DNA of 38,651 nt. It comes from Bifidobacterium breve. Its GTDB lineage: Bacteria; Actinomycetota; Actinomycetes; S36-B12. A model generated the notes under the pieces. It did not search any database. It was not told where the DNA came from and worked only from the letters and a program-made list of their open reading frames with translations. Below are positions 14,038-36,814 of this stretch, piece by piece; within the stretch, counting starts at the first letter, position 1; every line of letters starts with the position of its first letter. The position numbers and the translations under genes are program-made. Where the stretch lies: assembly GCA_945885645.1 (NCBI GenBank), contig CAMCYV010000001.1:1-38651 (forward strand). Direction: 5' to 3'.

Positions 14038-15018
14038 TTAGCCTTGGCGTCGAGCAGTTCGTGAGGCCAGCGCAACAGCAATAATCAGTGCGGCACCGTT
14101 GAACAGTTGAGTCACATAAGAAGGTGCGCCCGCTAGTTGCAGACCGGTCACACCGGTTGCAAGTAGGAAGATCGCAACAAGTGTTCCGAGCACGTTCACT
14201 CGCCCAGGTCGAATTTGGGTCGCACCAAGAAAAACTGCTGAGAACGCGGGGAGTAGATATCCGCTGCCGCTGTCCGGCGTGGCCGTACCGATAGTGGCCA
14301 GGTAAACGATTCCAGCGAAGGCAGAAGTCACGCCGGAAGAAATGAATGCGACCATGGTTACGCGCCCAACTCGAACTCCAGCAAGTCGGGAAGCGACCGG
14401 GTTTCCACCCACGGCGTAGAGGTAACGACCACCCGGGGTGTATTCCAAGATCCACCAGAAAAATAGTGCTATCAGCGCGGCGTAATACACCGAAAGTGGC
14501 AAACCAAACACTTCGGTCCGGGCAAACTCAAAGAATGGAGCGTAGCCCGCGGTGCTCAATACGATCTGGGAACTATCGGTAATCATGTAGGCAATCGCAA
14601 TCAGAACGCTGCTCATACCGAGGGTGCCGATAAACGAGTCGACCTTGAGTTTGACCACCACCAACGAGTTGGCGAGCCCGATAATGACACCGATCAAGAT
14701 CGATCCCCCGGCCGCAACAACAATTCCATGGCCATTTGTCAGAGCCCACGCAGTGAAACACACCGATACCGTCAACGTTCCCGCGATTGTCAGGTCAAAG
14801 GCCCCCGCTGCCACCGGTAAGAGGAGACCCAACGCGACGATCGCACTGATAGCTTGGAAGGTCAAAACCTGCTTGAGCGTGCTTGTCTGAAGGAACAGGT
14901 CAGGGATCCACAGTGCGAAAACCAGTACTAGTAAGGCCCACACATAGATTCCGCTGTACTTATCAAAGCCAAAATTGATGCGGCGGCGAGGGGCTGCTAC
15001 TTCTTGTATCTCAGACAT
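14038..15018 (-). CDS. ABC transporter permease, monosaccharide (RbsC/XylH-like) type
   Basis: 326 aa and very hydrophobic, with about 9-10 predicted TM segments. Directly downstream of the two-domain ATPase. Confidence 0.8.
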   Translation of the reverse strand: MSEIQEVAAPRRRINFGFDKYSGIYVWALLVLVFALWIPDLFLQTSTLKQVLTFQAISAIVALGLLLPVAAGAFDLTIAGTLTVSVCFTAWALTNGHGIVVAAGGSILIGVIIGLANSLVVVKLKVDSFIGTLGMSSVLIAIAYMITDSSQIVLSTAGYAPFFEFARTEVFGLPLSVYYAALIALFFWWILEYTPGGRYLYAVGGNPVASRLAGVRVGRVTMVAFISSGVTSAFAGIVYLATIGTATPDSGSGYLLPAFSAVFLGATQIRPGRVNVLGTLVAIFLLATGVTGLQLAGAPSYVTQLFNGAALIIAVALASRTARRQG

Positions 15019-15087: not shown

Positions 15088-16629
15088 CTAGGCCGCAGGT
15101 TCTGCCGAATCGCGGCCAATTGTTGCAGCCGTGATGTTGTCCACGGTGATTTTGTCTCCGCGAAGAATCTCCGCTGCCCGACCGCGGCGCATGATCACGA
15201 CGCGATCGCAAACGCGGACAAGTTCTTCATGGTCGGTTGAGCACAGGAGGACTGCTGCCCCCTGGGCCGCGGCTTCATCAACAAGAGTGTGGATGTCAGC
15301 TTTTGCTCCAACGTCCACTCCTTGTGTGGGCTCGTCTAAGACAAGTACCGATGGCTCCTGTCGCAACCAGCGAGCCAAGATCACCTTCTGCTGGTTGCCG
15401 CCGGACAACTGATTCATCTTGTATTCCGTCTGTCCACTTGGCTTCACGGACAAACGGTCCAACCATACGCGAACGTCAGATTTCTCCGGATTGCGTCGCA
15501 AGATACCTAATGACATGTGTCGACCGGGATCAACGAGAGTGATGTTTTCGCGCAATGTTTGATCAAGAAGTGATGCATTGGCATGCCTCTCAGCGGGGAC
15601 AAGCGCAACACCCCGCTGAATCGAGATGTCAGGTCGATTCTGGGGCAGCGTCTTTCCCTCTACGAGAATCTCCCCCGATCTTTCGTGGCCACCGAAAACC
15701 AGCGCGGCCACTTCCTCGCGACCTGAACCGGTTATGCCAGCAACTCCCACTACTTCACCCTGATGAACGGTGAGATCCATTCCGGAAACATTGCGTCCAC
15801 CCACACCCGACAGTTGCAGTACCTCTGTCCCGTGCTCGCGATCAACGGCCTCGCCCTTGTCATGTTCTTCAAGCTTGCGACCGACAACGAGCTCAATCAG
15901 TGCTTCTTCGGTCAATCCAGCGACCGGGAGCGTGTCTATCAACTTTCCGTCGCGCAGCACCGTCACGGATTCGGCCATCTCGAAAACTTCATCGAAGTGG
16001 TGCGAGACAAACAACACGGCCACACCAGAGTCCGCTACTCGGCGAACAAGTTGATACAACCGTTGCGCTTCTGGACCGGGAAGGTTTGCGGTGGGTTCAT
16101 CGAGAATCAGCATTTTCGGTGGCGTTCCACGCTCAGACATTGCCCGAGCGATTGCAACCGCAGTTCGCTCAGACATCTGGAGTGCCGCGACCGGCATGTT
16201 CACGTTGATTTCGTAACCCAATGCGGCGAGGGCCTCACGAGCCTTTGACCGCTCCTTGCGCCAACTAATTGTTTTAGTTGCGTTCGTGATGTAGCCCTGG
16301 CCCAAAGCCATGTTGTCAACGGTGTCCAAATTACCTACAAGTCCGAGGTCTTGATGCACAAAACGCAGACCGGCTGCCTCACTGGCTACCGGGTCTCCCA
16401 GAGCAAGTTCACTTCCGCCGACGAGGACTTCAATACCTGGCTCGGGTTCGTGAAAACCGGCCAAAATCTTGATCAGAGTGGATTTGCCGCAGCCGTTTTG
16501 CCCGACCAGCGCGCGGACTTCCCCCGCTGCAACCTCAATGGTTACGTTGTCCAGTGCGACCTGTGCCCCAAAAACCTTCGTGGCGTTGCGCACGCTGAGC
16601 GCGGATGTCGCAGGTGTTGCCGATGTCAT
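15088..16629 (-). CDS. Sugar ABC transporter ATP-binding protein with duplicated ATPase domains (RbsA/MglA-like)
   Basis: Walker A GQNGCGKST, signature LSGGNQQKV, Walker B VLVLDEPT, and a degenerate first-half signature. ATG has AAGGAGG upstream. Confidence 0.9.
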   Translation of the reverse strand: MTSATPATSALSVRNATKVFGAQVALDNVTIEVAAGEVRALVGQNGCGKSTLIKILAGFHEPEPGIEVLVGGSELALGDPVASEAAGLRFVHQDLGLVGNLDTVDNMALGQGYITNATKTISWRKERSKAREALAALGYEINVNMPVAALQMSERTAVAIARAMSERGTPPKMLILDEPTANLPGPEAQRLYQLVRRVADSGVAVLFVSHHFDEVFEMAESVTVLRDGKLIDTLPVAGLTEEALIELVVGRKLEEHDKGEAVDREHGTEVLQLSGVGGRNVSGMDLTVHQGEVVGVAGITGSGREEVAALVFGGHERSGEILVEGKTLPQNRPDISIQRGVALVPAERHANASLLDQTLRENITLVDPGRHMSLGILRRNPEKSDVRVWLDRLSVKPSGQTEYKMNQLSGGNQQKVILARWLRQEPSVLVLDEPTQGVDVGAKADIHTLVDEAAAQGAAVLLCSTDHEELVRVCDRVVIMRRGRAAEILRGDKITVDNITAATIGRDSAEPAA

Positions 16630-16702: not shown

Positions 16703-19288
16703 TCACGATCCGGTACTGCTCTTTTCCATCGCAACAGGTGCAACATTGACGGACCCGACTCGGGCATGTGCTGCCGCTAACCGGGCGACCGGAATGCGCG
16801 ACGGTGAACATGAAACATAGTCCAGCCCCAGTCGTTCGCAGATCTCTATCGATGACGGATCGCCACCGTGCTCCCCACAAATCCCTAACTTGATATCAGG
16901 TCGTACAGATCGAGCTTTGTCAACCGCATAGGACATCAATGCTCCGACACCGGATTCGTCGAGCTCAGCAAATGGACTGGCTGTCATGAGTCCTTTGGAG
17001 AGATAGGTACCAAGCATGCGCCGTTCAACGTCATCTCGGGAGAAGCCGTACGTGAGCTGCGTTAAATCATTAGTGCCGAATGAAATGAAGTCAGCCCATT
17101 GGGCTAATTGATCGGCTAACAGCGCCGCCCTCGGTGTCTCGACCATGGTGCCGATTTGGAAGGGGATCACCATTCCGCTCCGCGATGAAACTTCTTGGTT
17201 CACCCGGCGGATCAGTCGGAGCATCATGAGCAATTCATCAGGGATCGACACCAACGGAATCATCACTTCAAGTTCAGGGTGGGCATCACCGGAAGAGACC
17301 ACGTCGACCCATGCATTGAAAAGTCCTTCAACCTGCGCGGGATACAAACCCTCATGCATCAATGCGAGCCGCACACCGCGCACACCCAGCATTGGATTTT
17401 CTTCGTGCATGTGTTCCAACATCCGGGCCTGATTCGCATCTTCTGCTTGATCGGCGCTGGCGGGGAGGAATTCGTGCATCGGTGCATCAAGTAATCGAAC
17501 GGTGACCGGCCGGTCACCCACGGCGCGCAATAAATCACGGAAGTCTTCACGTTGGGCATCGGCGAGGGCGGCGAGGGCGGCTTCTTCCGCGTCAAAGTCG
17601 TGGGAAAGGATCACCCGACGCACGAGCGGCAAACGGTCGCCCATGAACTGGTGCTCGGTGCGACACAAACCAATTCCCTCGGCACCACTGTCCATAGCAA
17701 TGGCGGCATCTGCGCCGTTGTCGGCATTGGCACGAACACCTAGCCTTCGCAAGTCATCAGCCCAACCCAGCAGAGCGGTCAAACTTGGTGAAGGAACAGG
17801 GGGCTCAATAATTAATTCACCAACGTATGCGACACCGGTAGCACCGTCAATTGAAATAACGTCACCGGCGCGCAACACATGAGCACCCGCGGTGAGGGTT
17901 TGCGCTTCATGATCAATGCGTAGATCCCCCGCTCCGCAGATCGCCGGCCGACCCATCCCGCGAGCAACCACGGCTGCATGTGAGGCCGAGCCACCATTAA
18001 TCGTCATGATTCCGGTTGCAGCCATCATGCCGGGTAAATCACCCGGGGTTGTCTCACTCATGACCAGGAGTACGGACTCTCCCGACTCAGCCAAATCAAC
18101 CGCACTCTCACTGGTGATTGCAATGCGGCCGACCGCTGCCCCCGGAGATGCGGCCAGACCTGAAACAAAAGGAACTTCTGCACCGGTGAGCTTGGGCTGA
18201 GGGTGGAGTAACTCCAGTACATGTGGGGATTCGACCGCGCGCACCGCGTCGATTTCACTGCTAATTCCCCGTGTGACCAGGTCAACGACGAGGCTCGTGG
18301 CTACCCGCGCATTAGGCTTGCGCAACTGTTCCAACCCAACGAGAGCCAGGCCTTCAGGCCCAAATTCAAAGTCGACAATCACCGAACTGCGGAGCCGACC
18401 CTCGAGCTCGGCCAACACGCCGGTCAACATTTCCACTCCGTTGGGCAACATGCTTAACGGAAGTCCACCTTGCTGCCGTTCGCTACCTGAACGGAAGCCA
18501 TGTCGGAACAAGCCATTGGGTGCAAACTGCCCGGAGTCCATTTCACGTGACATGGCAAAACCATGACCCTCTGCATCATGCTCGGTGACAACGATTGTTT
18601 CAAGATGAAGGGCCAAAGGGAGATCAGCGGGAAGATTCTGCTTGCGTCGGGCACGCGCTGCGCGCGGTGAATTCCAGCGAGCCAACATTGCCTGGGCTGC
18701 AGCCGCAACCTGCTCACTTCGCTTAGTGGGAAACGGTGATGAGCCTTTTTCCTTGCACAACCGCCGGAACGGTTCAACCCGTTCAACGAGATCCGGGTAG
18801 TCAAAATCAAGTGTGCCCAAGTCTTCAATGGGAACACCCAATGCGTGCTCGGCAATAAATGCTGCGGTTTTCCACCAGGCAACACCCAGTTCACCTCGCG
18901 CTTTAGGACCCAGCCCTTCAGGGATAACACTTCGCTTGAGTCCGAGACAGGTGAGGTCCGGCGGTAGGCCAGCAGCAGCGACCGGTGCACTCGCACTCAA
19001 TCGCAGAAGTACAAGACCACCAGTTTCGGTCGTGGAACTGATCTCGCGACCAGCGATATTTTCCACTAAGTTCATTGCTGCTTTAGCCCGGTCCGGGGAG
19101 GTGAAGCCGGGAACGTTTGGCACAGGAATTGTTAGACCTGCGCCAACAGGAAGGCCAAGGCCTGCAAGAGTTTCTAGTTCAATGCCTCGGGTACACAGTG
19201 ATCGCGCATCGAGTCCGCGCTGTAATCCACTGCCGAATGGGACAAGTCCAACGTCATCGATTGGCCCTGTTCGAAATATTGGGCTCAC
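16703..19288 (-). CDS. Pyruvate,phosphate dikinase-like PEP-utilizing enzyme with a divergent N-terminal domain
   Basis: GGSASHAAVVARGMG (His codon 17978-17980), GIGLCRTEH, SFGTNDLTQLTYGFSRDD and KLGICGEHGGDPSSI are collinear with PPDK. The N-terminal ~340 aa are poorly conserved. GTG start overlaps the upstream stop (GTGA). Confidence 0.8.
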   Translation of the reverse strand: MSPIFRTGPIDDVGLVPFGSGLQRGLDARSLCTRGIELETLAGLGLPVGAGLTIPVPNVPGFTSPDRAKAAMNLVENIAGREISSTTETGGLVLLRLSASAPVAAAGLPPDLTCLGLKRSVIPEGLGPKARGELGVAWWKTAAFIAEHALGVPIEDLGTLDFDYPDLVERVEPFRRLCKEKGSSPFPTKRSEQVAAAAQAMLARWNSPRAARARRKQNLPADLPLALHLETIVVTEHDAEGHGFAMSREMDSGQFAPNGLFRHGFRSGSERQQGGLPLSMLPNGVEMLTGVLAELEGRLRSSVIVDFEFGPEGLALVGLEQLRKPNARVATSLVVDLVTRGISSEIDAVRAVESPHVLELLHPQPKLTGAEVPFVSGLAASPGAAVGRIAITSESAVDLAESGESVLLVMSETTPGDLPGMMAATGIMTINGGSASHAAVVARGMGRPAICGAGDLRIDHEAQTLTAGAHVLRAGDVISIDGATGVAYVGELIIEPPVPSPSLTALLGWADDLRRLGVRANADNGADAAIAMDSGAEGIGLCRTEHQFMGDRLPLVRRVILSHDFDAEEAALAALADAQREDFRDLLRAVGDRPVTVRLLDAPMHEFLPASADQAEDANQARMLEHMHEENPMLGVRGVRLALMHEGLYPAQVEGLFNAWVDVVSSGDAHPELEVMIPLVSIPDELLMMLRLIRRVNQEVSSRSGMVIPFQIGTMVETPRAALLADQLAQWADFISFGTNDLTQLTYGFSRDDVERRMLGTYLSKGLMTASPFAELDESGVGALMSYAVDKARSVRPDIKLGICGEHGGDPSSIEICERLGLDYVSCSPSRIPVARLAAAHARVGSVNVAPVAMEKSSTGS

Positions 19289-19899
19289 GCCCCGCTCTCC
19301 GCAATGAGGCGCTCCTCAAGCTCCTCGTCTTCTTTACGCGACATTCCGATGGTCAAGATAAGTTCTTGGTGAAGGTGCATCCAGACCGTGTGGTACGAGT
19401 CAATTAGTGGAGATGCGAGCCAAGCGTCTTCACCGTCGTCAAGTTTGGCGAGAGCCTCCGTGAGTTTTTCGCGGTAACCGGCCATTCGGGGAATGTCCTC
19501 GGTGAATCGTTTGAGAAGTGGCGCCACTGAATCGTCGATGTCGTCCAGGCGGTCACGGATATCAGCGTCATAGTTTTCATCGGAGTGGTCATTGACGCTG
19601 CCATCGGGACGAACCTGCCACGATGTACACAAGTCGCGTAGTGCGCGGTTTACCGGAAGAAAACGGTGAAAAGTAGCCATGATGCGCTCGCGCTCGGGGG
19701 CCTGATCGGGCAGTCGAAGTGACTCTGAGACAAATTCGGTGCCGGCCGGGGTCGGCATCATGATCGGTCCTTTGATCAGAATCAACCCAGCGTCGGCCAG
19801 AGCCTGTTGCTGTGCTGAGACCTCGCCACGGGCCATTCCCCGAATAACCAAAGTCACGAGCGCGTCGCGCTCTTCTTCTGCCAAGACCACGTCGCTCAT
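19285..19899 (-). CDS. Hypothetical protein (204 aa), translationally coupled to the PPDK-like gene
   Basis: ATG has GGAGAAG upstream. Acidic, helix-rich sequence with no motif I recognise. 4-nt overlap with the next gene. Confidence 0.55.
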   Translation of the reverse strand: MSDVVLAEEERDALVTLVIRGMARGEVSAQQQALADAGLILIKGPIMMPTPAGTEFVSESLRLPDQAPERERIMATFHRFLPVNRALRDLCTSWQVRPDGSVNDHSDENYDADIRDRLDDIDDSVAPLLKRFTEDIPRMAGYREKLTEALAKLDDGEDAWLASPLIDSYHTVWMHLHQELILTIGMSRKEDEELEERLIAESGA

Positions 19900-20070: not shown

Positions 20071-22044
20071 GTGACCATTACTGCCGCCAGCCCACTTCAG
20101 GCCGCCCTCCAACCAATCACGGTTGGCACCATGGACTTATCGCATCGATTATTCGTGCCAACCCACGGAGGCGGTGCGGGATCGCTGACCGGTGACGACT
20201 CCCGCTTCCAAGCGATGCTCGACTACTGGCTCTCCCGCGTTGAAGACGGTTTCCAATGGATCGGTGGTCCACCATGTCACGTACAGCATCTGCAGATTCC
20301 TGGCTTTGAAGCCACCGGTATCGGGGCGCTTGGAAAGCAAGATGGAAACTTCCGTCACCCGCTCTTCCACGACCGGATGTCACACTTCGTTGACCGTGTT
20401 CACTCTGCCGGCGGCTACATGGGCATTCAACTTCTCCAGCAGGGCGGCATGCCCAGCGCTCCCTCTCCCACTTTTTCCGGATTTCTCGACCACCGCGGTG
20501 TCCACGTTATGAATCGCGACGAAGTGAAATGGGTCATTAACGAATACATTGAATCAGCCGTAATTGCAGCACGAACCGGTGCGGATTCAATTGAACTTCA
20601 CAGTAATCACGATGACATTATTGAGTGGTTTCTTTCGCCGCTCACTAACACTCGAACCGATGAATACGGCGGTTCGTACGCCAACAGGCGACGCTTCTTG
20701 CAAGAGATCACCGACGGTGTTCGCTTACGTGTTGATAGGCCAATCACATTTGGTTTGCGCCTCGCACTCGATCAGGACATGGACGGTGGTTACGGACTCG
20801 ACGAATGCTTGCGTTTAATGCAAAGCTTTGAGGCCGATGGCACTGTCGATTATTTCAACCTTGATATGGGTGGAAACTGGGGAGCAATCACCTACCTGCA
20901 ACACGGCATGTACCCGGAAGCTGCATGGGCACACATGTGCGGTGAAGCAAAAGCGGTCACAAAACTGCCCGTGCTTTATGTGGGTCGAGTTGTGCACGCT
21001 GAGACAGCCGAAAAAGTGATCGCAGACGGCAACGCCGACATGGTGGGAATGGTTCGTGCGCTGATCGCAGACCGCGAATGGTTGCGCAAAACACTCGACG
21101 GACGGCCCGACGAAGTTCGGCCATGTATTGCATTAAACGACTGTATCCACCGATACACATTGGAAGGCCTGAGCTTTGGCTGTGGTGTTAATCCGCATGC
21201 GGGCCGTGAATCACTGCCGCCAATAACGGTGAGTGAGAAGTCTTTGCGCTTACTTGTTGTCGGTGGTGGTCCAGCCGGGATGGAACTGGCTGCAAATGCT
21301 GCAGAGCGCGGACACGCTGTTGAATTGTGGGAAGAAAAAGCCGAACTCGGTGGTCGCTTCGCAATCGCAGCCAAGCTGCGGACAAACCCGACCTACCAAG
21401 ACTGGATCGACTGGTCCGCGGCTCGATTGCCGAGATTGGGAGTCAACACCTACCTCGGCCGGCGCGCTTCGGTGCGCTCAATTCTTGATGGCAACTTCGA
21501 CGTCGTCGCATTTGCTACAGGTTCGCACGCGCGACGCCCCGGAATCCCCGGTGAATATCTTCCGCACGTGTTCGGTGCGGACGCCGTTATTCGCGGGTTC
21601 ACTCAACCCTTAGGGCACCGAGTGCTGGTGATCGCAGCCGACGACGGACCATCTCCACTCACCGTGTCCGATCACCTCGCGCATTTAGGCCACGAAGTTG
21701 TTCTGGCATTTGAAACACCAGGACCTTCACCACTTGTGGGCAAGTACTCAGCGGGCGCGATGTTTGAAAGTTTGGACGAAGCCGGTGTTGAGATTTTGCA
21801 GATGGCTGTTGCAACCGAGATTCGAGTCAATGAAGTTGAGTTTGCCAATGCATACAGTCGTCTCAGATTCACGGTCGGTGGAATTGACTCGGTGGTTCTG
21901 GTCACCGGTGGGGTAGGCAACGACGCCCTTTATCGGTCGGTGTCTATGCACCACCCGCGAACCCACCTACTCGGGGACGCATGGGCTCCGCGACGGATGA
22001 CATTCGCGACCAAGCAGGCATTCGAACTGGCCCAGCTGCTGTAG
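20071..22044 (+). CDS. FadH/2,4-dienoyl-CoA reductase-like two-module flavoprotein (OYE-like TIM barrel plus FAD/NAD(P) domain)
   Basis: OYE-family block LSPLTNTRTDEYGGSYANRRRF, linker CIALNDCIH...FGCGVNP, and dinucleotide fold LLVVGGGPAGMELA. GTG 20071 is the first in-frame start after the stop at 20062. No obvious SD. Confidence 0.8.
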   Translation: MTITAASPLQAALQPITVGTMDLSHRLFVPTHGGGAGSLTGDDSRFQAMLDYWLSRVEDGFQWIGGPPCHVQHLQIPGFEATGIGALGKQDGNFRHPLFHDRMSHFVDRVHSAGGYMGIQLLQQGGMPSAPSPTFSGFLDHRGVHVMNRDEVKWVINEYIESAVIAARTGADSIELHSNHDDIIEWFLSPLTNTRTDEYGGSYANRRRFLQEITDGVRLRVDRPITFGLRLALDQDMDGGYGLDECLRLMQSFEADGTVDYFNLDMGGNWGAITYLQHGMYPEAAWAHMCGEAKAVTKLPVLYVGRVVHAETAEKVIADGNADMVGMVRALIADREWLRKTLDGRPDEVRPCIALNDCIHRYTLEGLSFGCGVNPHAGRESLPPITVSEKSLRLLVVGGGPAGMELAANAAERGHAVELWEEKAELGGRFAIAAKLRTNPTYQDWIDWSAARLPRLGVNTYLGRRASVRSILDGNFDVVAFATGSHARRPGIPGEYLPHVFGADAVIRGFTQPLGHRVLVIAADDGPSPLTVSDHLAHLGHEVVLAFETPGPSPLVGKYSAGAMFESLDEAGVEILQMAVATEIRVNEVEFANAYSRLRFTVGGIDSVVLVTGGVGNDALYRSVSMHHPRTHLLGDAWAPRRMTFATKQAFELAQLL

Positions 22045-22076: not shown

Positions 22077-23792
22077 TTAAGCGGTCTCGAGTACTTCGAT
22101 GGTGCCCTTGGCGCCGTCAACTCGAAGCAGATCGCCAGTTTTAAACATCTTGGTGGCACCGGGCAGACCGGCAACACAAGGAATGCCGAGTTCGCGAGCA
22201 ACTATCATTGCGTGCGAAGCCATTGAGCCGGTGTTCACCACGACAGCCGTGGCCAACATGAATAACGGTGTCCATGACGGGTCGGTCTGGGGTGCGACCA
22301 AGATTTCACCCGGCTCAAACTCCCCAATTGCATCAGTGCCCAAAACAATGCGTGCACGTCCCTCGACCACACCCTGCGATGCGGCAGCTCCATTGAAAGA
22401 ATCACCGACCTTTGCGCGATCAACGGCAACTGAACCCTTGCGGGGTATTTCCGATACTGGCGGGATTGGCTTTCCACTGTCCAAGAAGGTGGGAACTTCG
22501 AGGTCTTTGAGCGCCAACCACTGGGTTTGGCGTTCGCGGATACTCGGTAGCAGTGCGCCGTTGCCGAGTGCGAGGGCGTCCAACTCGTTGTCGAGTGCGA
22601 TGAAAATCTGTCGCGAATCATCAAGGACACCCTGTGCTGCAAGGCGGTTACCCAATTCAATTAAGGCCATCCGGGCTTCGTTCATAATCTTGATACAGGA
22701 TGACTTTCCGCTTTCACGCCAACCGGCGAAACGTCGAGCTGAACCGATAGCTCCACGGAACATCGCCTCAGTTGCGGCGTCCATACCTGCTGTGGCCTCG
22801 AGCATCGCTTGGTCGGTAGCCGCAGCGTGCAATGCCTGCTTTGCCGAAGGTGATTCCGAGTCTTCGAGTAAACGCATCTTGTCAACGAGTGCGAGTGCAA
22901 GTGAAGGCTTGGACTCCCATGACTCGGTTCCCAGATCCCATTCGGATGGACCGCGGTAACCGAACTCTCCGATAAATGCAGCGAACTCATTCCAGAAACC
23001 ACCGGTTGCTGTCGGGAGTTGGGCTTCAACCTTGTCCATTCCGCTGTTAAACAACTTGGTCATCTCTGGGCTGTTCTTCACCGTGCGCGAGAGCGACCAC
23101 AGTGAATAGGTTGGTGCCGCAGACTCAACGTCACCGGCGTAGCCGAGGATCGTGATCAGCAAATGGGCCTTGTCAGCGCCGAGAATTTGACCGGCAACGG
23201 CTGGGCCAACCGCCGCGTTTGAGGCGCCAATCTGTTCCGAGCGCCAAGCCAGACGTTCATATGGCATCACGGAGCGTGCTCGTGCAACGAGTGCGCGGTT
23301 GCTCATGGCCTTGAGGTTAGGGCGATTGCGACGTAGATCATCAGCGATTGCAGAGTCTTCGTCGGCGCCCTCAAACTTTGACGTGTTGAGTACCCAGCCA
23401 GCGCGCGCACCCCCGAGTGCGGTGAGTAACTCATTGGCATCGGTTGCTGATGCAACGTGGGGTGGGGCTCCAGGGGAATTAAAGAAGATTGAGTCGATGA
23501 TATCCGCGGTCATGCCCTTGCGGATTCCCAAAACTCGGACGTTACTCTGATTTATATAGAGGTATCCGTAAAAGAATCCAGCGACGGCGGATTCTTCGGT
23601 GAGCTCGTCTGCTGTGAAACAAACGTCTTCGACGTAACCGGATGCCCAACCGGGAAGAACGTTGGGGATCCAACACATGGTTGCACCAAGTGGTGTAATC
23701 GGATCAGCCATCACGTCTGCGGCATTGAGCCGGGTATAAATCGGGAACCTTACGCTGGGCTCGGTATCAGTGAGCCACGCCTTTTTTGACAT
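22077..23792 (-). CDS. PEP-utilizing swivel-His domain protein lacking an ATP-grasp domain (rifampin-phosphotransferase-like substrate plus His domains), paralog 1
   Basis: C-terminal VVEGRARIVL..EPGEILVAPQTDPSWTPLFM..GSMASHAMIVARELGIPCVAG (His codon 22212-22214). The N-terminus MSKKAWLTDTEPSVRFPIYTR parallels the paralog start. An alternative ATG lies at 23804. Confidence 0.75.
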   Translation of the reverse strand: MSKKAWLTDTEPSVRFPIYTRLNAADVMADPITPLGATMCWIPNVLPGWASGYVEDVCFTADELTEESAVAGFFYGYLYINQSNVRVLGIRKGMTADIIDSIFFNSPGAPPHVASATDANELLTALGGARAGWVLNTSKFEGADEDSAIADDLRRNRPNLKAMSNRALVARARSVMPYERLAWRSEQIGASNAAVGPAVAGQILGADKAHLLITILGYAGDVESAAPTYSLWSLSRTVKNSPEMTKLFNSGMDKVEAQLPTATGGFWNEFAAFIGEFGYRGPSEWDLGTESWESKPSLALALVDKMRLLEDSESPSAKQALHAAATDQAMLEATAGMDAATEAMFRGAIGSARRFAGWRESGKSSCIKIMNEARMALIELGNRLAAQGVLDDSRQIFIALDNELDALALGNGALLPSIRERQTQWLALKDLEVPTFLDSGKPIPPVSEIPRKGSVAVDRAKVGDSFNGAAASQGVVEGRARIVLGTDAIGEFEPGEILVAPQTDPSWTPLFMLATAVVVNTGSMASHAMIVARELGIPCVAGLPGATKMFKTGDLLRVDGAKGTIEVLETA

Positions 23793-23855
23793 GTGAACGT
23801 CCATTTCGTGTGAGGGTGAAAGGGTCAGAGTTAGCGAATGTTACCACCGCCAAAC

Positions 23856-23867
23856 TAGGACTACCTA
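23856..23867. promoter_or_regulatory. Operator-like site TAGGACTACCTA
   Basis: Lies in the 85-bp gap between the Rieske oxygenase stop (23878) and swivel-His paralog 1 (preferred start 23792). One mismatch to TAGGA-NN-TCCTA. Confidence 0.3.
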
Positions 23868-23877
23868 TGAAATCACA

Positions 23878-25086
23878 CTATCGAGGGCCGTGTACCGGCT
23901 CATGGGCGAGCAGTCGACGAATCGTTTCATGGGCGTGCTGAACGGCAATCTCATTACGACCGATGGTCATGTACTGATCAGCGAGTGAAGCGAGGCCATT
24001 TTGCACGTCGGTCTGCGCCGTGTAGTCCTCATCACGGAAGGCAGCGAAAAACCATTCGGCGGTTTTCTCTGCCTCGAGAAACTCTTCGGGAGTTTGGGGC
24101 GGCGTGCGCAGCAGCGTTGTCTGCCACGTCATTGACTCACCCCATGAGTCACCCGGAAGCATGATCGAGATTACGGTGCGCTCACGCAATCCACCAGCAA
24201 TCGCCATACCTGGAAAGACCCAGTACACAAGGCCCATGGCCTCTGCGGGATCCCATTCATCTCGCGGTTTTTCCATCATGGCGTCAAGGGTTTTCAGCGC
24301 GAACACATTACGCACGTGCGGACCAAATGAATCTAACGTCATGCGGTTGGTGTGGTTGGTGAGGGCAACGGTTTTTGCGTGCAGTGAACTGAAGTGATAA
24401 CCCTCGAGGTACCCGTCCAAAGTCACTTTCCAGTTGGGGCCGGGCAATGTTTTCGTGGTGAAGTGTGTGCACTTGTCAAGCTCGAGCGCCTCGAGGTGCG
24501 GCAGTACCTCACCGAGCCAAGCGTCGATCCCCAAGTCCATGTCGGGGGTAAGTCCAATGAAAATGAAACCGGCCCGTTCTACACACGGCAGTTGCACCAA
24601 ACTGAAATCTTCTTTGTTTACTTCACCGAAAGTATCTTCACCGGGAACTCCCGTAAGTTTTCCGTCGGTGTCATAGGTCCACGAGTGGTAGCCACAGGTG
24701 AATCTGCGCGCACTTCCGCAGCCATCGGCTAGAAGTTTCATGGCGCGGTGACGACACACATTGATCATCGCTCGCATCGTGCCGTCCTTGCCGCGAACAA
24801 GGATGATTTCTTTGCCGACCACTCGCATTGTTTTAAAGTCACCAACGTTTGCGAGTTCGGCCGAAGTACCTACTGGCAAGGGAATTGCTTGAAAGATCTC
24901 CTTGATCTCCCGTTCCCACAAATCTTGATCCAAGTACTCCGAAATCGGGACCTTCAGTTGCTCAGGTGCCATGTCGGTCGTCTGGTTACGCAGATGGGAA
25001 GCAAGTCGATCAAGGATGGACATTGCTTCTTCACGGCTCAACGCGGTGTGCGTGCCCGATGTGTATTGGGGCAGTGTCTCGGTCAT
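23878..25086 (-). CDS. Rieske [2Fe-2S] / mononuclear iron oxygenase alpha subunit
   Basis: Rieske motif CRHRAMKLLADGCGSARRFTCGYHSW (24685-24756). Iron ligands EGYHFSSLH and a downstream Asp. No beta subunit gene is adjacent. Confidence 0.9.
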   Translation of the reverse strand: MTETLPQYTSGTHTALSREEAMSILDRLASHLRNQTTDMAPEQLKVPISEYLDQDLWEREIKEIFQAIPLPVGTSAELANVGDFKTMRVVGKEIILVRGKDGTMRAMINVCRHRAMKLLADGCGSARRFTCGYHSWTYDTDGKLTGVPGEDTFGEVNKEDFSLVQLPCVERAGFIFIGLTPDMDLGIDAWLGEVLPHLEALELDKCTHFTTKTLPGPNWKVTLDGYLEGYHFSSLHAKTVALTNHTNRMTLDSFGPHVRNVFALKTLDAMMEKPRDEWDPAEAMGLVYWVFPGMAIAGGLRERTVISIMLPGDSWGESMTWQTTLLRTPPQTPEEFLEAEKTAEWFFAAFRDEDYTAQTDVQNGLASLADQYMTIGRNEIAVQHAHETIRRLLAHEPVHGPR

Positions 25087-25092
25087 AGAAAA

Positions 25093-25098
25093 ATACTA
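25093..25098 (-). promoter_or_regulatory. Candidate -10 element TAGTAT (context GTGTAGTAT), positioned for a leaderless Rieske oxygenase mRNA
   Basis: The hexamer is followed by exactly 6 nt (TTTTCT) and then ATG 25086. No well-spaced SD precedes this ATG. Confidence 0.35.
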
Positions 25099-25120
25099 CA
25101 CCTCGGTAGCAAGTGAGTGA

Positions 25121-25834
25121 TCAGTTTGTCCGGATGCCGTCATGCAGGTGCTGGCTCTCATTGATTGAATGCACTCGACGAATATCTCCCTTAATCCACA
25201 CCCGGCTCAGTGAACAGTGTGATGGCAAGAAGAACATGTCTTCTTCGATCCCCAAGATCTCACTAATGACTGCATTGATGACACCGCCGTGGCTCACCAA
25301 AACAATGTGCTGTCCTTCGTAGTCTGCAATCAATTTTTTAATGGCTCCCATGACGCGGGCACGAAACTCTGCTGAACCTTCACCAAAAAACATGTGGTCC
25401 CACATGACTTGGCGATAAAAGGCCTGCTCGCGTGCGGCCCATTCCTCGGGGTCAACCAAAGTCTGCGGGTTAACCCCTGGTTCGAGCTCGCGGTAAGACG
25501 CGATCTCAACAAACTCAGGACGCACTTCTGGTGTGAGCCCGAGCGGAAACGCAATGATCTCCGCTGTTTCCTTTGCCCGATGCATTGAGCTACACACGAC
25601 AACATCAACTTCCTGCTCGGTCAGCACACCTGCAAGTGCAGCTGCCTGAACCCGACCAAGATCACTCAACATTGGGTCATCCCACGCGGTGTGGTCAAAC
25701 TCTTCTTCGGTTGGGAACACCTGCTGGGCATGGCGAACCAACGTCAGTCGGGTAACACCATCTTCGAGCAGGAGAAACGGGATCCGAACAGAAAACGGTG
25801 GCTCAGGTGACAGCGGAGGAAGAACTATCTTCAT
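25121..25834 (-). CDS. Histidine phosphatase (phosphoglycerate mutase-like) family protein
   Basis: LTLVRHAQQ (RH motif), CSSMHRAKETA and VLVSHGGVINA are present. The start overlaps the stop of the upstream swivel-His gene (ATGA at 25831-25834). Confidence 0.75.
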   Translation of the reverse strand: MKIVLPPLSPEPPFSVRIPFLLLEDGVTRLTLVRHAQQVFPTEEEFDHTAWDDPMLSDLGRVQAAALAGVLTEQEVDVVVCSSMHRAKETAEIIAFPLGLTPEVRPEFVEIASYRELEPGVNPQTLVDPEEWAAREQAFYRQVMWDHMFFGEGSAEFRARVMGAIKKLIADYEGQHIVLVSHGGVINAVISEILGIEEDMFFLPSHCSLSRVWIKGDIRRVHSINESQHLHDGIRTN

Positions 25835-27567
25835 ACAGACTCAATCACCTTCACGGTGCCGGTGGATCCATCGAGTTCAACGAGCGTGCCACTCGGCAGT
25901 GATGTACTCGCACCCGCCAATGAGACAACACAGGGGACTCCTAGTTCTCGGCTGACAATCACCGCGTGGCTGGCTTGGGCACCGATTTCACAGATCACCG
26001 CACTGGCGATCATGAAAAGTGGAACCCACGAAGGGTCGGTGGTTGTGCAGACAAGAATTTCACCGGGCTCCAATGAGTCAGCGTCGGCGAGGTCCAAGAT
26101 CACCCGGGTGCGAGCCGTCACTGCACCTTGTGAACCGGGAATGCCTTTCATCTGCGTTCCCGCCGCGGCTCCGACACCCTCGGCGAACCGGCGGCGCTTG
26201 GGCCACTCACTAATCGGTGGAATTGGACGATCGCGGATCACCAAATAGGGCGGCTCAAGTTCAGCGAGTGTCAACCATTGCGCGTGCCGTGCTGCCGTTA
26301 TTTCAGTGAAGGATGCTGGATCTGCGATGAATGAATCCAATTCACTTTCCAGTATTTGGAATACATGCATTGGGTCCGCAAGGAGACCGCGCTCGTGCAT
26401 CCGACGGCCCAGTTCGCGGAAAGCGAGTTTGGGCTCCTGCATCAACATAACGGTGGCATTTTTGCCGGCTTCACGTAGTCGATATGCGATTTGACCCGAG
26501 GAAATCCCCGCAGCCAGTAAGCCTGCTGTTGCTTCGTCACCAGCAACAGCTGCGGTAAGTTCTTCGACTGCAGCTTGACGGCGTTTGGCTGATTCGCCAG
26601 CCCGCAGTGTTGGGGACATTGCGTCCTCCTGTCGGCGGACGCGGTCAATCATTTGGTAGGCGAGCGTCGGGTTGATCAGCCACGTCTGAGCACTGATTTC
26701 CCATTCGTTTACACCGCGATGACCGAACATGCTGATCAATTCATCAAATTCTGAATTGAACTTAGCCGCGGTCGGTTCAGCGGCAAGGCGTTCGGCGAGA
26801 CCGTCCATGCCAGCGTCGAAGGCAGCTGTTAGTTCTGCTGATCCGCGAACCAGACGGGAGAGATCCCAGACCCGCTCGGGCATTCCCGCTGAGGCGACGT
26901 CACCTAATGCGCCAAAGATTTGAATTGCTAATTCGGATTTACCGACCGCATCAGCGATCCCTTGCACAATTTGCGGCCCCACCGTTGCTCCAATAACAAC
27001 CTGTGCGTAAGCATCCCAACCTGGACGCTGCCACCGGGCCGAGGTGCGTCCGTACTCGACAAGAGCTGCATCCGAAATGGTTGCAAGGTCTGGTCGACTG
27101 GCACGCCACTTCGCGGCATCCGCCAAATATTTCGCGGCCAGCGCTTCCTGGGCCCCACCCAGAATTGCGCCGAAGGATTCACCCAACTTCGCCGAGCATG
27201 CTTCATTGTCATCACGCGGATCGTGAACATACGGTGGAACAGTCGAGTTTTGGCCGAAGAAAGAAATATCAATTGCATCAGGGGTCGCGCCTGGCATGCG
27301 ATGACCGAACACTCGACCGAGTGAAACCTGGTTGTAGAAATAGCCGCCCCATGATCCATATGTTTCTGGTTGCGTCCACAAAAACTCATCGGGTTCAAAA
27401 GTGCCGAGGGCGATCCAGGCATCGGCTGTACCCGGCGCCATCCCTTGTTCCCATGTCAGCGTCCAGTTCAACGGTGTGAATGGCTCCGGGCCGACTTCGT
27501 CGGCATTGGCGCGCGTGTAAATAGGGAAACGCTCGCTGGGCTCAGTGTCAGCTATCCACGTTTTCAT
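25831..27567 (-). CDS. PEP-utilizing swivel-His domain protein lacking an ATP-grasp domain, paralog 2
   Basis: C-terminal AVTARTRVIL..EPGEILVCTTTDPSWVPLFM..GAQASHAVIVSRELGVPCVV (His codon 25966-25968). N-terminus is MKTWIADTEPSERFPIYTR. ATG has GGAGGA upstream. Confidence 0.8.
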   Translation of the reverse strand: MKTWIADTEPSERFPIYTRANADEVGPEPFTPLNWTLTWEQGMAPGTADAWIALGTFEPDEFLWTQPETYGSWGGYFYNQVSLGRVFGHRMPGATPDAIDISFFGQNSTVPPYVHDPRDDNEACSAKLGESFGAILGGAQEALAAKYLADAAKWRASRPDLATISDAALVEYGRTSARWQRPGWDAYAQVVIGATVGPQIVQGIADAVGKSELAIQIFGALGDVASAGMPERVWDLSRLVRGSAELTAAFDAGMDGLAERLAAEPTAAKFNSEFDELISMFGHRGVNEWEISAQTWLINPTLAYQMIDRVRRQEDAMSPTLRAGESAKRRQAAVEELTAAVAGDEATAGLLAAGISSGQIAYRLREAGKNATVMLMQEPKLAFRELGRRMHERGLLADPMHVFQILESELDSFIADPASFTEITAARHAQWLTLAELEPPYLVIRDRPIPPISEWPKRRRFAEGVGAAAGTQMKGIPGSQGAVTARTRVILDLADADSLEPGEILVCTTTDPSWVPLFMIASAVICEIGAQASHAVIVSRELGVPCVVSLAGASTSLPSGTLVELDGSTGTVKVIESV

Positions 27568-27614
27568 CGTTCCTCCAAAAAATTAAGCAATGAATAAAAC
27601 AGGTTCAATCACGT

Positions 27615-28064
27615 TCAGGATGCACCAGAGATGACCTCGCGGTCACCCTCTTTCCACAGCCGATCCAACCGGCGGTAATCGATCCGCCAACCTTCGGGGG
27701 TGCGAACAACTCGGTCGGCGTACTCGCCTCCCAAAGCGTAGTGCTTCACCGGGCCGGGTGTTGATTCCCTGATGTGCTGGGAAATGAGATACGTCTTCAC
27801 TTCGGCCTGGTCACCGTCGAGCTCAATGAGACTTTTACCAATCAGGTGCTGGGTTGAGTCCAATCCGGTCAGGGTGCCTTCAATCATTGCTCGGATCTGC
27901 GGGGCACCGGTTGGGCAGCCAAGGCTTCCCCCGTCAAAAATGGCATCGGGGGTAAACAGGGTCTCGAGCGTGTCAAAGTCCTTGGAGTCAATTGCCCGCG
28001 CATAACGAACAAGCAGTTCCTCAATCTCAATTCGATCTACTATTTGCGCAAGGTTCATGGTCAT
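27615..28064 (-). CDS. NTF2/SnoaL-like family protein
   Basis: IEIEELLVRYARAIDSKDFDTLETLFTPDAIFD is typical of SnoaL_4-type NTF2 folds. The start is ambiguous (ATG 28064 or 28058, or GTG 28091). Confidence 0.6.
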   Translation of the reverse strand: MTMNLAQIVDRIEIEELLVRYARAIDSKDFDTLETLFTPDAIFDGGSLGCPTGAPQIRAMIEGTLTGLDSTQHLIGKSLIELDGDQAEVKTYLISQHIRESTPGPVKHYALGGEYADRVVRTPEGWRIDYRRLDRLWKEGDREVISGAS

Positions 28065-30558: not shown

Positions 30559-31308
30559 TTAGTCGAGGATGGTTTCGCGCAAGCGGTTGATATCGCTTGC
30601 GTCTAAACCTTTTGCGCGAGCCCATTCCTCTGCACTGCCGTAGTTACTCGTCATGCGTGCCAGGAATTCGCGCATGGTGTCCGGCTCGGAGGCGAAGATC
30701 CAATCGGGAGCCCCGGCCAAGCCGTTGTCTTTGAATACTTGGGCGGAGCGAATTCGCTCGATAATCGGGGCCATGTTGGTGGTGGTGACGTGATAGTCAG
30801 CAACAATATTTTCGTGCGAGACTCCGAGAATGTCGAGAAGCATCGCAATGACAACCCCAGTGCGGTCCTTTCCTGCTGTGCAGTGAACAACAAGTGGTCG
30901 GTTCTGCGGATCTGCCATTAAACGTAGAGCCTCAATTATTGATGGTGCGTTGATTTCAATCTGACGCAGATAGTCGTCAACCAAATTGTCTGCGCCGCCT
31001 GCTTCGATTTGCTCTGGGGTGATACCCGACTGGGGGATCATCGGCAGGTGCACCATACGTGCAGATTCGTGCCCGATCACATAACCCTCATGGGTCACCT
31101 CGAGCGCCATCCGTAAATCAACTACGAGCGCCGGAGCAATTTCTTCTGACAAATCCAACTGGCCCTGCTCGGTCATTCCTTTCGGGTTATCACTGCGAAT
31201 CACTTGACGCGACCGAATCAGTCGACCGTCTTGTACCTGTAGTCCACCAAGATCACGAACATTAACCAGGCCATCTATTCGTAGTTCTTCAGCCCGAGAC
31301 TCACTCAT
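30559..31308 (-). CDS. Cys-based (CX5R) tyrosine/dual-specificity phosphatase family protein
   Basis: Active-site loop VHCTAGKDRTG. The start overlaps the upstream stop (ATGA at 31305-31308). Confidence 0.8.
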   Translation of the reverse strand: MSESRAEELRIDGLVNVRDLGGLQVQDGRLIRSRQVIRSDNPKGMTEQGQLDLSEEIAPALVVDLRMALEVTHEGYVIGHESARMVHLPMIPQSGITPEQIEAGGADNLVDDYLRQIEINAPSIIEALRLMADPQNRPLVVHCTAGKDRTGVVIAMLLDILGVSHENIVADYHVTTTNMAPIIERIRSAQVFKDNGLAGAPDWIFASEPDTMREFLARMTSNYGSAEEWARAKGLDASDINRLRETILD

Positions 31309-35620: not shown

Positions 35621-35932
35621 ATGAATCACGTGACGGTACTCCCGCTTGGCCTCGAACTCGAGGTAGCAGAAAACCAGGCGGTCATGGAAGCAGCGCATCA
35701 AGCAGGTTATATCTGGCCCACCGAATGCCAGGGGGAAGCTTCCTGCGGCCTATGCGTCAGCATCATTCGTGAGGGCACCGAGAACTGCGCACCCATGCTT
35801 GATGAAGAACGGGAAACACTCGAGCGAACGATGGGCATGATTGATTCATCTCGGAGACTCGCCTGTCGTTTGTTAGTCACAGGCCCGGTGACCTTGACCA
35901 AGCGCGGCGTTCGCCAAAGTGAGGAGGCATAA
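35621..35932 (+). CDS. [2Fe-2S] ferredoxin, adrenodoxin/putidaredoxin-type Cys spacing
   Basis: CQGEASCGLC...(36 aa)...C gives C-x5-C-x2-C-x36-C, with LDEERETL....SSRRLAC as in vertebrate-type ferredoxins. GGAGG RBS. Confidence 0.8.
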   Translation: MNHVTVLPLGLELEVAENQAVMEAAHQAGYIWPTECQGEASCGLCVSIIREGTENCAPMLDEERETLERTMGMIDSSRRLACRLLVTGPVTLTKRGVRQSEEA

Positions 35933-35935
35933 AAG

Positions 35936-36814
35936 ATGAGCGAATCTACCGACCTTCATGCACTTGCCCAACGACTTGAACGGCTCGAGACAACCGAGGC
36001 TGCCCGATCAACTCTGTTTGCCTATGCGCAGGCGGTTGACACCCGAAATTGGTCGATGCTCGGCGGAGTTTTCAGCGAAGATGCCGTATGTGAAATGCCC
36101 GGTCTACTCCTCACCGGTCGCACCGCGATCGTAGAAGCGCTGCAGGGCATGCTGCCCACTGAATTCATTACCCGACACTTGATCGTGAACCCGCAAGTAA
36201 CGTGGACAGCACCCGGACGGGCCACTGTTCGCGCAACTGTCTACTACGCGCACGAGGGCAGTGGCTTTGAGGCAACCGGTTGGGGGGATTACACCGACGA
36301 GATAGTGGTTACTGACGGAATCGGCGTTATCACGCGTACGGTTTTCACACCGGCAGTGCATTTGCCGGGAAGTATCTCGAGCCTTGCCCCACGTGTGCAG
36401 CAACTTGAAACGGCCGAATTGGCTCGCGCGGTTTCATGGCGCTACGCGAACGCTGTCGACGCTCCAGACTTCGACTTGTTGAAAAGTGTCTTCACCGAAA
36501 ATGCTGTCCTAACAACAAGTAAAGGCTCGCGCACCGGTCGCGAGGAAGTACTCAAATATTACGCAACCGCGCTCACTGGTCCGGTAAAACGAAAGCACTT
36601 CTTGTTGAATCAGTCACTCACCCCACTCGGTCCTGATTTGGTCTTACTGGAGTCCTACTTTTTATACACATTCTCCGGCGAAGACACCTCCACCATTGGT
36701 TGGGGAAACTACGTAGATCGCATCCACATCATCGACGGTGTCGGTTACATCCAGGACAAACGGATTTCAGCGGACCTTCATGCTGACTCCCGTATTGGTT
36801 GGGCGCGTCCGTGA
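35936..36814 (+). CDS. Tandem double NTF2/SnoaL-like domain protein
   Basis: Two repeats of the same module: LERLETTEAARSTLFAYAQAVDTRNWSMLGGVFSEDAV and VQQLETAELARAVSWRYANAVDAPDFDLLKSVFTENAV. GAGGAGG RBS. Confidence 0.65.
   Translation: MSESTDLHALAQRLERLETTEAARSTLFAYAQAVDTRNWSMLGGVFSEDAVCEMPGLLLTGRTAIVEALQGMLPTEFITRHLIVNPQVTWTAPGRATVRATVYYAHEGSGFEATGWGDYTDEIVVTDGIGVITRTVFTPAVHLPGSISSLAPRVQQLETAELARAVSWRYANAVDAPDFDLLKSVFTENAVLTTSKGSRTGREEVLKYYATALTGPVKRKHFLLNQSLTPLGPDLVLLESYFLYTFSGEDTSTIGWGNYVDRIHIIDGVGYIQDKRISADLHADSRIGWARP

Follow-up and report, generated by a model that had tools for sequence, protein, structure and literature searches.

A proposed split phosphotransferase of the RPH superfamily, with a candidate PPDK-like donor, in a catabolic island of an actinobacterial contig

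The 38,651-nucleotide contig CAMCYV010000001.1 (assembly GCA_945885645.1, deposited as Bifidobacterium breve), referred to here in its entirety as the window, harbors a catabolic island of a freshwater actinobacterium and is 98% identical to contig JBBARV010000005.1 of a Candidatus Nanopelagicales metagenome-assembled genome (MAG). Within this island, two paralogous genes encode proteins that consist of the substrate-binding and swivel-histidine domains of rifampin phosphotransferase (RPH) without the nucleotide-binding head. It is proposed that they belong to a multi-component small-molecule phosphotransferase of the RPH superfamily, which would be charged by a PPDK-like protein together with a 204-residue protein, here called unk204; we give this proposal an even chance of being correct. 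It draws on domain architectures, the loss of ATP-site motifs, the conservation of catalytic residues, gene order, co-location across phyla, and gene fusions.

The two headless kinases are the following:

22077-23792, minus strand: kinase paralog 1, 571 residues, RPH-type substrate-binding domain and swivel-His domain, His527
25831-27567, minus strand: kinase paralog 2, 578 residues, RPH-type substrate-binding domain and swivel-His domain, His534

The start of paralog 1 is the methionine used by gene callers in relatives and identical contigs; counted from 23804, the protein would have 575 residues. The two proteins share 38% identity over their full length (E = 8e-122), and the sole Pfam match in each is the C-terminal PEP-utilizers mobile domain PF00391 (E = 7e-25 and 1.7e-20 in the two paralogs), which spans residues 500-570 of paralog 2. 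The catalytic histidine is part of the swivel-domain SHA motif and is encoded by CAC in both genes, at 22212-22214 for His527 (context SMASHAMIVAREL) and at 25966-25968 for His534 (context AQASHAVIVSREL). Precomputed annotation of the family lists PF27448 (Rph_4th) in addition to PF00391.

The nucleotide-binding head is missing. Neither paralog matches PPDK_N (PF01326) in the Pfam scan. The NCBIfam models for RPH, PigC/RedH, and RPH-like “PEP synthase”, which have ~830-930 positions, are matched only from position ~520 onward, the RPH/PigC/RedH-type models being covered over their C-terminal ~350 positions only, and the ~600-residue PRK08296 models are matched in the swivel domain only. A phmmer search of the PDB aligns residues 263-573 with residues 559-867 of Listeria RPH (5fbs, E = 3e-28). 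The AlphaFold2 model of paralog 1, built with 37 homologs (predicted local distance difference test score (pLDDT) 87, predicted template modeling score (pTM) 0.89), is mainly helical to residue ~430 and ends in a small beta-rich swivel domain. Foldseek superimposes it on the Listeria RPH structures 5fbt, 5fbu, and 5hv1 (E ~1e-20, template modeling score 0.67-0.68, ~590 columns), the remaining matches being to the swivel domain alone. A complete ATP-grasp concealed in the N-terminal half is ruled out by the Pfam and NCBIfam searches, the model, and Foldseek. In full-length RPH-like proteins PPDK_N occupies residues 18-320, and the hidden Markov model (HMM) of the headless family, from positions 5-6 onward, corresponds to residue 331-337. 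An earlier note, written from the sequence alone, had described the two proteins as paralogs with a C-terminal mobile phosphohistidine domain, without a nucleotide-binding head, and with an alignment that sets in where the ATP-grasp of RPH-type enzymes ends; each of these points is borne out.

Each paralog hence joins a substrate-binding domain to a swivel-His domain and has no nucleotide-binding head. As in RPH, a helical domain of the rifampin-binding type is followed by a C-terminal His swivel, but the N-terminal ATP-grasp is absent from the chain. Listeria RPH (5fbs/5fbt/5hv1) is the closest solved structure over the whole length, yet it is a single chain that begins with an ATP-grasp. Across the 37 homologs (down to 38% identity), the swivel His and 70-odd further positions are invariant. 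At E ≤ 1e-30 the family comprises 1058 clusters at 50% identity, the majority of which have 570-590 residues and match end to end, so that the headless form is a stable architecture rather than a truncation.

Other domain arrangements occur around this core. Tandem kinase-kinase fusions (P0199 and P0207) are reminiscent of the two paralogs of the window. In P0155 (849 residues), an N-terminal SDR is fused to a complete headless kinase, and the window proteins, over their kinase part, likewise match the NCBIfam model NF004520 (PRK05865, “sugar epimerase family protein”, 854 positions); this architecture is presumably that of M. tuberculosis Rv2047c. Distant matches include giant RPH-like proteins of 1200-2650 residues with 3-6 swivel-His domains, many with one N-terminal ATP-grasp (P0153, P0194, P0206, P0222, P0226, P0232, P0233, P0240, P0245-P0247, P0250, P0251, and P0270).

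Split RPH-type dikinases are already known. In HpeHI from Rhodococcus rhodochrous, CreHI from Corynebacterium glutamicum, and PpsAB from Thauera aromatica, the RPH-like substrate-binding and swivel domains make up one subunit, the ATP-grasp forms a 40-kDa subunit of its own, and the His is essential (PMC12167813); CreI and HpeI are 40% identical (PMC9618137). The window paralogs share with these systems a substrate-binding and His subunit that lacks the ATP-grasp, a likeness to PpsA, CreH, and HpeH that rests on domain make-up and published descriptions. In contrast to the ~640-residue kinase subunits of the three systems, those of the window have 571-578 residues and come as two paralogs. All three systems stand at the start of catabolic pathways whose later steps comprise an enzyme that takes the phospho-intermediate as its substrate and a phosphatase devoted to removing the phosphate (PMC12167813, PMC9618137); the same arrangement is proposed for the window. 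In the Hpe pathway, the carboxylase takes the phosphorylated compound only, and HpeD then dephosphorylates the product (PMC9618137). The Cre set comprises CreH, CreI, CreD, and the cytochrome P450 CreJ, for which CreE and CreF serve as redox partners (PMC9549646).

The statement in the earlier note that it knew of no characterized system with such a composition has to be qualified, given that CreHI/CreJEF/CreD and HpeHI/HpeCBA/HpeD share its logic and only the donor module and the Rieske oxygenase are new (PMC12167813, PMC9618137, PMC9549646). What is already known is a split RPH-type dikinase within a pathway that phosphorylates, transforms, and dephosphorylates. What appears to be new, as judged from sequence, is a donor module with its own His and, in the window, an apparently ATP-dead and PEP-competent version of it. 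New are also the unk204 partner without a solved structural relative, the replacement of the P450 by a Rieske oxygenase, and the pairing of kinase paralogs.

The candidate donor is encoded by two overlapping genes:

16703-19288, minus strand: PPDK-derived protein, 861 residues, with a degenerate ATP-grasp, an intact swivel His, and an intact PEP/pyruvate-binding domain
19285-19899, minus strand: unk204, 204 residues, N-terminal winged helix and five-helix domain, upstream of the PPDK-like gene

The PPDK-like open reading frame (ORF) is the only match of the ATP-grasp HMM in the window. Its Pfam matches are limited to PEP-utilizers (PF00391) and PEP-utilizers_C (PF02896, E = 3.9e-73); its first 400 residues give no PPDK_N match even at E = 0.05, and it scores 652 bits against the PPDK model TIGR01828, for which the cut-off is 843. 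The N-terminal region is still homologous to ATP-grasps, with 293 bits across the whole grasp HMM. When aligned with relatives of the type of VadK, a truncated PPDK described below, its nucleotide-site motifs are found to be degenerate: VRSGAxxSMPGMMDT is replaced by LSASAPVAAAGLPPD, QAMVFGN..SGTGV by ETIVVTEHDA.EGHGF, and LQxRxGKR by LE.QLRKP, while GEDVVxG is absent. Alignment to the C. symbiosum PPDK, in residue numbering that we take to be the correct one for that enzyme, reveals that the swivel-His motif GGSASHAAVVARG is preserved, as are the PEP-site motifs LCRTEH, VRLLDAPMHEF, GTMVETPRAA, FGTNDLTQ, and GICGEHGGDP. An ordinary PPDK is ruled out by the sub-cut-off TIGR01828 score, the missing PPDK_N match, and the degenerate nucleotide-site motifs. 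Judged by its motifs, the protein looks capable of exchanging phosphate between its own His and PEP (phosphoenolpyruvate) but incapable of using ATP. This combination of degenerate ATP-grasp motifs with an intact catalytic His and PEP-binding domain makes PEP the likelier phosphoryl donor.

A GTGA overlap joins the stop codon of unk204 to the start of the PPDK-like gene. The protein has no match in Pfam or NCBIfam, and its AlphaFold2 model (pLDDT 94), in which an N-terminal winged helix precedes a five-helix domain, finds no significant relative in the PDB by Foldseek (best E = 0.085). Thirteen residues are invariant in the family, namely W94, Q95, N103, D104, H105, D107, D111, S168, Y169, H170, W173, H177, and R188, clustered in the motifs WQ, NDHxD..YD, and SYHxxWxxxH, which look like a binding or catalytic site. 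A profile search returns at least 120 matches, proteins of Nocardia, Rhodococcus, Gordonia, and Amycolatopsis among them, and NCBI labels the homologs as MarR-family regulators. No M. tuberculosis entry is found among the 120 matches listed, so that membership of Rv1126c in the family is not confirmed.

The association of the three components extends beyond the window, and unk204, which the earlier note had passed over, is the conserved third component beside the kinases and the PPDK-like protein. Of the 80 species loci sampled around a kinase homolog, with neighbors counted within 10 kb, 16 contain a gene or domain of the unk204 family and 13 an ATP-grasp ORF; all 13 grasp-bearing loci also contain the unk204 family. 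In the 41 loci of at least 18 kb, unk204 is present in 11 and an ATP-grasp in 10. Eleven of the 13 grasp partners are fully readable and combine PPDK_N with a swivel His of their own in ~460-520 residues; the remaining two come from L051, where the grasp is part of an RPH-like fusion, and from L052, where the contig ends inside the ORF. The architecture of VadK (ATP-grasp plus swivel His) is seen in the partners of loci L041, L093, L095, L098, and L099. The Rhodococcus partner of L093, which comes from a second sample collected around unk204, passes the NCBIfam model NF004531 with 616 bits (cut-off 456), a model that we take to describe the Rv1127c-type truncated PPDK.

In this unk204-side sample, four loci have contigs long enough to judge, those of Rhodococcus sp. 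JVH1, Aldersonia, Rhodococcoides kyotonense, and a marine gammaproteobacterium, and each contains all three genes together with a P450, an SDR, an aldehyde dehydrogenase, a CoA ligase, a TetR regulator, and a phosphatase. An equivalent gene set is found in a Sphingomonadales MAG and on a Rhodococcus plasmid, and a Streptomyces contig that ends before any kinase gene could show carries the VadK-type gene, P450, SDR, aldehyde dehydrogenase, and CoA ligase. The kinase gene overlaps the partner gene in L041 and L095.

Four independent fusions join the components. In L060 and L065 (Chloroflexota), ATP-grasp, His, and unk204 domains share one chain. In L019 (Acidimicrobiaceae), the His and PEP-binding domains are fused to unk204 without an ATP-grasp, and the neighbors of the fusion gene include a gene homologous to paralog 1 and a Rieske gene. 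P0169, of 1321 residues, is the one fusion that joins all three components, with kinase, ATP-grasp, His, and unk204 in a single chain; its gene lies directly downstream of CUT2 transporter genes that resemble those of the window. The suggestion that 16703-19288 charges the kinases in trans is thus strengthened as far as a link to the kinase family goes, by co-location and fusions, but the protein is not the plain ATP-binding subunit that had been envisaged.

A neighbor-joining tree of 88 kinase homologs separates a group with VadK-type partners, which includes the P450 clusters, from a Rieske-associated group that contains both window paralogs. As read from these sequence comparisons, the link of the donor pair to the kinases appears strong for the superfamily and moderate for the Rieske-associated clade.

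Several observations weigh against the proposed donor. The donor pair of the window forms a separate transcription unit, which lies behind a convergent flavoenzyme gene. Within 10 kb, a donor module is missing from most loci of the Rieske group, among them those of Streptomyces, Williamsia, Dietzia, and Geodermatophilus; donors of this group were seen only in the lineage of the window (the window, L011, and L001) and in L019, both of the PEP-domain type, and L082 has an unk204 gene and no PPDK-like gene. P0169 stems from a single metagenome contig and could reflect a lost or miscalled stop codon. The loss of ATP binding in the PPDK-like protein is deduced from motifs only, and, given the MarR-type annotation and the winged-helix N-terminus, a purely regulatory role of unk204 is possible. 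To our knowledge, transfer from one swivel His to another has no direct precedent in the superfamily, the partners in the known split dikinases being devoid of a His domain, and we know of no biochemically studied member of this kinase clade.

The scarcity of donors near Rieske-clade kinases is one argument for a classical two-component dikinase, in which a stand-alone ~40 kDa ATP-grasp subunit of the PpsB/CreI/HpeI type would be encoded elsewhere in the genome and the PPDK-like pair would merely share the island. In the genomes concerned, at least, the partner has to be encoded at a distance, and all three characterized split dikinases are charged by an ATP-grasp subunit (PMC12167813). In the characterized systems, however, the two genes adjoin, whereas neither an adjacent ATP-grasp-only beta subunit nor any complete ATP-grasp-only ORF is found in the window or the 98 other related loci with an HMM that detects both PPDK-type and RPH-type grasps. 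Co-location and fusions, in addition, tie the PPDK-like/unk204 pair specifically to the kinase family, and a classical dikinase is considered unlikely. If the pair is indeed the donor, it differs from the 40-kDa ATP-grasp neighbor of HpeHI, CreHI, and PpsAB in having its own His, a degenerate grasp, a PEP domain, and the additional unk204.

A regulatory function of the pair is suggested by its closest described counterpart. VadK (Rv1127c) is a truncated PPDK that autophosphorylates its His and tightly binds a small operonic partner (PMC13400623). The window pair likewise combines a PPDK-derived swivel-His protein with an operonic partner of ~200 residues, the likeness of unk204 to Rv1126c being one of size and gene position only. 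Genes of the unk204 family adjoin VadK-type genes in Mycobacteriales. The domain composition is opposite, however: VadK has the ATP-grasp and the His but no PEP domain, while the window protein has kept the PEP domain and lost the ATP-site motifs. Published work presents VadK as a regulatory histidine kinase (PMC13400623) that controls the methylcitrate cycle, and not as part of a small-molecule kinase. The PPDK-like protein and unk204 could by analogy form a sensor pair that reads PEP or energy status and donates nothing to kinase substrates, in keeping with the winged helix of unk204, the MarR-family naming of its homologs, and the position of the pair at the head of a transporter operon. 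On the other hand, the P0169 fusion and the gene overlaps in L041 and L095 are easier to reconcile with an enzyme complex than with a regulator, the clusters with VadK-type partners already have TetR regulators of their own, and the invariant His, Asp, and Tyr residues in the C-terminal domain of unk204 are more typical of a catalytic or binding site. A sensor pair is, on balance, a quite improbable explanation.

A scheme in which the headless kinases need no charging module and, in the manner of transphosphorylases or mutases, pass phosphoryl groups from one metabolite to another via the swivel His is very improbable: HpeH alone does transfer phosphate from 4-phosphoacetophenone to acetovanillone (PMC12167813), and four phosphatase-family genes in the window and APH-type kinases near relatives indicate that phospho-metabolites could arise otherwise, but such a donor-free scheme leaves the conserved partner genes and fusions unexplained, and the net pathway would still require a primary phosphoryl donor.

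For charging by the PPDK-like/unk204 pair, a general functional analog is the phosphotransferase system (PTS), where the swivel His of Enzyme I is charged from PEP by the C-terminal barrel and the phosphate then passes to another protein; the L019 fusion is composed of exactly the His domain, the PEP domain, and unk204. Unlike the PTS, the proposed system has no HPr or EII, its acceptor would be a soluble RPH-type kinase, and the window protein keeps a vestigial ATP-grasp. Enzyme I alone phosphorylates rifampicin in vitro (PMC13099321). A broader hypothesis, tentative and rather doubtful as a whole, holds that a soluble PTS-like phosphorelay serves a non-sugar catabolic substrate, that VadK/Rv1126c is the ATP-using form of the donor family, and that the acceptor of M. 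tuberculosis VadK is an RPH-type kinase (e.g., one like Rv2047c). VadK would then be a metabolite-kinase subunit rather than a protein-regulating histidine kinase. The supplements of the VadK paper contain no mention of Rv2047c and no description of Rv1126c (PMC13400623).

The kinase genes belong to a compact string on the minus strand, whose other members are as follows:

27615-28064, minus strand: SnoaL_4 (NTF2-fold) protein, first gene of the string (PF13577, E = 1.3e-29)
25121-25834, minus strand: His_Phos_1 phosphatase (branch 1), 237 residues (PF00300, E = 1.4e-34)
23878-25086, minus strand: Rieske non-heme-iron oxygenase alpha subunit, 402 residues, CntA/GbcA-like (PF00355 and PF00848)

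From the SnoaL gene through paralog 2, the phosphatase, and the Rieske gene to paralog 1, the intergenic gaps are 47, -4, 34, and 85 nucleotides, the operon boundaries being drawn from gene spacing alone. The negative value reflects an ATGA overlap between the stop of paralog 2 and the start of the phosphatase gene (GTATGAAG). The Rieske and phosphatase genes between the paralogs, the ATGA overlap, and the SnoaL gene at the head had all been pointed out before, and both Pfam and inspection of the sequence agree. The order SnoaL, kinase, phosphatase, Rieske, kinase, whose conservation had been put forward as a check, is retained in relatives L001 and L011-L013, down to 71-72% identity. A promoter/terminator scan of the window returned nothing exceeding shuffled expectation, and an Rfam scan of the window gave zero matches. 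The SnoaL_4 gene is called as 149 residues in identical contigs, and its product shows a weak partial NCBIfam match to the small subunit of anthranilate dioxygenase.

The phosphatase carries RHA and SHGG motifs, and its best families and structures are CobC, PhoE, PspA, GpgP, and dPGM; the first four of these, its best PDB relatives, are without exception small-molecule phosphatases. SurE stands in its place in analogous Mycobacteriales clusters of the unk204-side sample, while His_Phos_1 is the phosphatase type in those of proteobacteria. Because of this non-orthologous replacement and the likeness to CobC, PhoE, and PspA, the enzyme is proposed to act on a small-molecule phosphoester, as CreD and HpeD do, and not on a phospho-His protein. 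A SixA-type protein phosphatase finds no support, as the protein has 237 residues compared with ~160 for SixA and no SixA match is listed for it. Of the two targets that had been envisaged, product and phospho-His, action on a phospho-metabolite is therefore the one that appears more likely.

Both the Rieske 2Fe-2S domain (PF00355, E = 6e-19) and the mononuclear-iron domain (PF00848, E = 1.7e-24) are present in the oxygenase. Its best full-length PDB match is the carnitine monooxygenase CntA (6y8j, E = 3.6e-30, residues 50-368), and its best NCBIfam match is GbcA, under the cut-off, which points to an alpha-only monooxygenase type rather than a classical ring dioxygenase. In the Cre pathway, Du et al. 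are said to have found in 2017 that the P450 oxidizes the phospho-alkylphenol and that CreD afterwards removes the phosphate. The string resembles that pathway in the clustering of kinase, oxygenase, and phosphatase, with phosphate serving as a transient handle (PMC9549646). It differs in its oxygenase, a CntA/GbcA-like Rieske protein in place of a P450, in its His_Phos_1-type phosphatase, and in its donor module; the substrate need not be a phenol. Candidate substrates of steroid-like, terpenoid, cyclitol-like, or quaternary-amine nature were considered from the neighboring genes, and none is strong enough to adopt. The anaerobic 25-hydroxysteroid kinase was dropped as a relative, since the published text assigns it no family.

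On these grounds we infer the following course, in which all catalytic steps, the donor, the His-to-His transfer, the relative order of oxygenase and kinase, and the substrate are conjectural. PEP would charge the swivel His of the PPDK-derived protein in the fashion of Enzyme I, and this protein, together with the co-translated unk204, would charge the headless paralogs in trans. The phosphoryl group would pass from the donor His to His527 or His534 of the kinases and from there to a hydroxyl of the substrate, with each paralog binding a hydroxylated substrate or intermediate in its RPH-type helical domain. The Rieske monooxygenase would transform the phosphorylated intermediate, and the His_Phos_1 enzyme would take the phosphate off, following the logic of the Cre and Hpe pathways. 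These two precedents favor, by analogy, a Rieske enzyme that acts on the phospho-intermediate rather than one that makes the hydroxyl.

Transient phosphorylation as a catabolic strategy has been recognized only recently, from the phenol, cresol, and acetovanillone pathways. The more than 1000 clusters of headless RPH-type kinases at 50% identity suggest that the strategy is much more widespread, with Rieske oxygenases besides P450s as partners and with hosts that include abundant freshwater Actinomycetota. The donor side also looks more varied than an ATP-grasp-only subunit: it may be PPDK-derived with an ATP-grasp or possess the PEP-binding domain only, and both forms have their own swivel His and a conserved partner of 200 residues. 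If the linkage is functional, it would define a PEP- or ATP-driven small-molecule phosphorelay and would provide a testable acceptor class for the VadK-type truncated PPDK of M. tuberculosis.

Further features of the island adjoin the kinase and donor genes or may serve them:

20071-22044, plus strand: OYE/FadH-type Fe-S flavoenzyme (Pfam Oxidored_FMN and Pyr_redox_2), convergent with paralog 1
15088-16629, minus strand: CUT2-type ABC transporter ATPase (Pfam ABC_tran, twice), directly downstream of the PPDK-like gene
14038-15018, minus strand: CUT2-type ABC permease (Pfam BPD_transp_2)
35621-35932, plus strand: 2Fe-2S ferredoxin, 103 residues (Pfam Fer2, E = 5.8e-9)

The flavoenzyme matches the NCBIfam models for the mycofactocin OYE_2 and BaiCD under their cut-offs and adjoins paralog 1 also in L001, L005-L008, and L011-L013. 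The CUT2 transporter type recurs near kinase homologs in L003, Streptomyces loci, L044, and L061. The ferredoxin is a possible electron donor of the Rieske oxygenase. It opens a plus-strand operon (35621-37500) that continues with a tandem double SnoaL_4 protein of 292 residues and a HAD phosphatase, a trio also found in L005.

Also encoded in the island are two acyl-CoA dehydrogenases, an SCP-x-type thiolase with a DUF35/ChsH2-like OB protein, the E1 alpha, E1 beta, and E2 components of a 2-oxoacid dehydrogenase, several SDRs, ThuA, two luciferase-like enzymes, a xylose-isomerase-like barrel, and a PNPOx-like protein, in addition to the CUT2 ABC transporter. Part of this content belongs to a larger gene set that accompanies the kinase across Actinomycetota and occupies 2946-13290 in the window: 2-oxoacid dehydrogenase E1 alpha/beta/E2, SCP-x-type thiolase and DUF35 OB protein, an MDR-type reductase, one or two Rieske genes, the CUT2 ABC transporter, ThuA, and an SDR. 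The set is seen in Streptomyces (L024, L028, L031, L033, L035, and L036), Williamsia (L017), and Acidimicrobiia (L044, L061, and L082).

Four phosphatase-family genes are present in the 38-kb island (8950-9594, 25121-25834, 30559-31308, and 36799-37500), two of the His_Phos_1 type, one Y_phosphatase3, and one HAD_2 of the HpeD class, which suggests several phosphorylated intermediates. Y_phosphatase3 recurs near kinase homologs in L002 and L003. Genes for an unrelated second kinase type, APH/EcKL (PF01636), lie a few kb from kinase homologs in L002, L003, L098, and L099, the hosts being Geodermatophilus, Aldersonia, Rhodococcoides, and an uncultured actinobacterium. Lastly, the DUF35/ChsH2-like ORF (6612-7310) and the ORF of the MDR-type reductase (7036-8043) overlap by ~275 nucleotides on the same strand, and the DUF35 gene probably starts later than its longest ORF implies.

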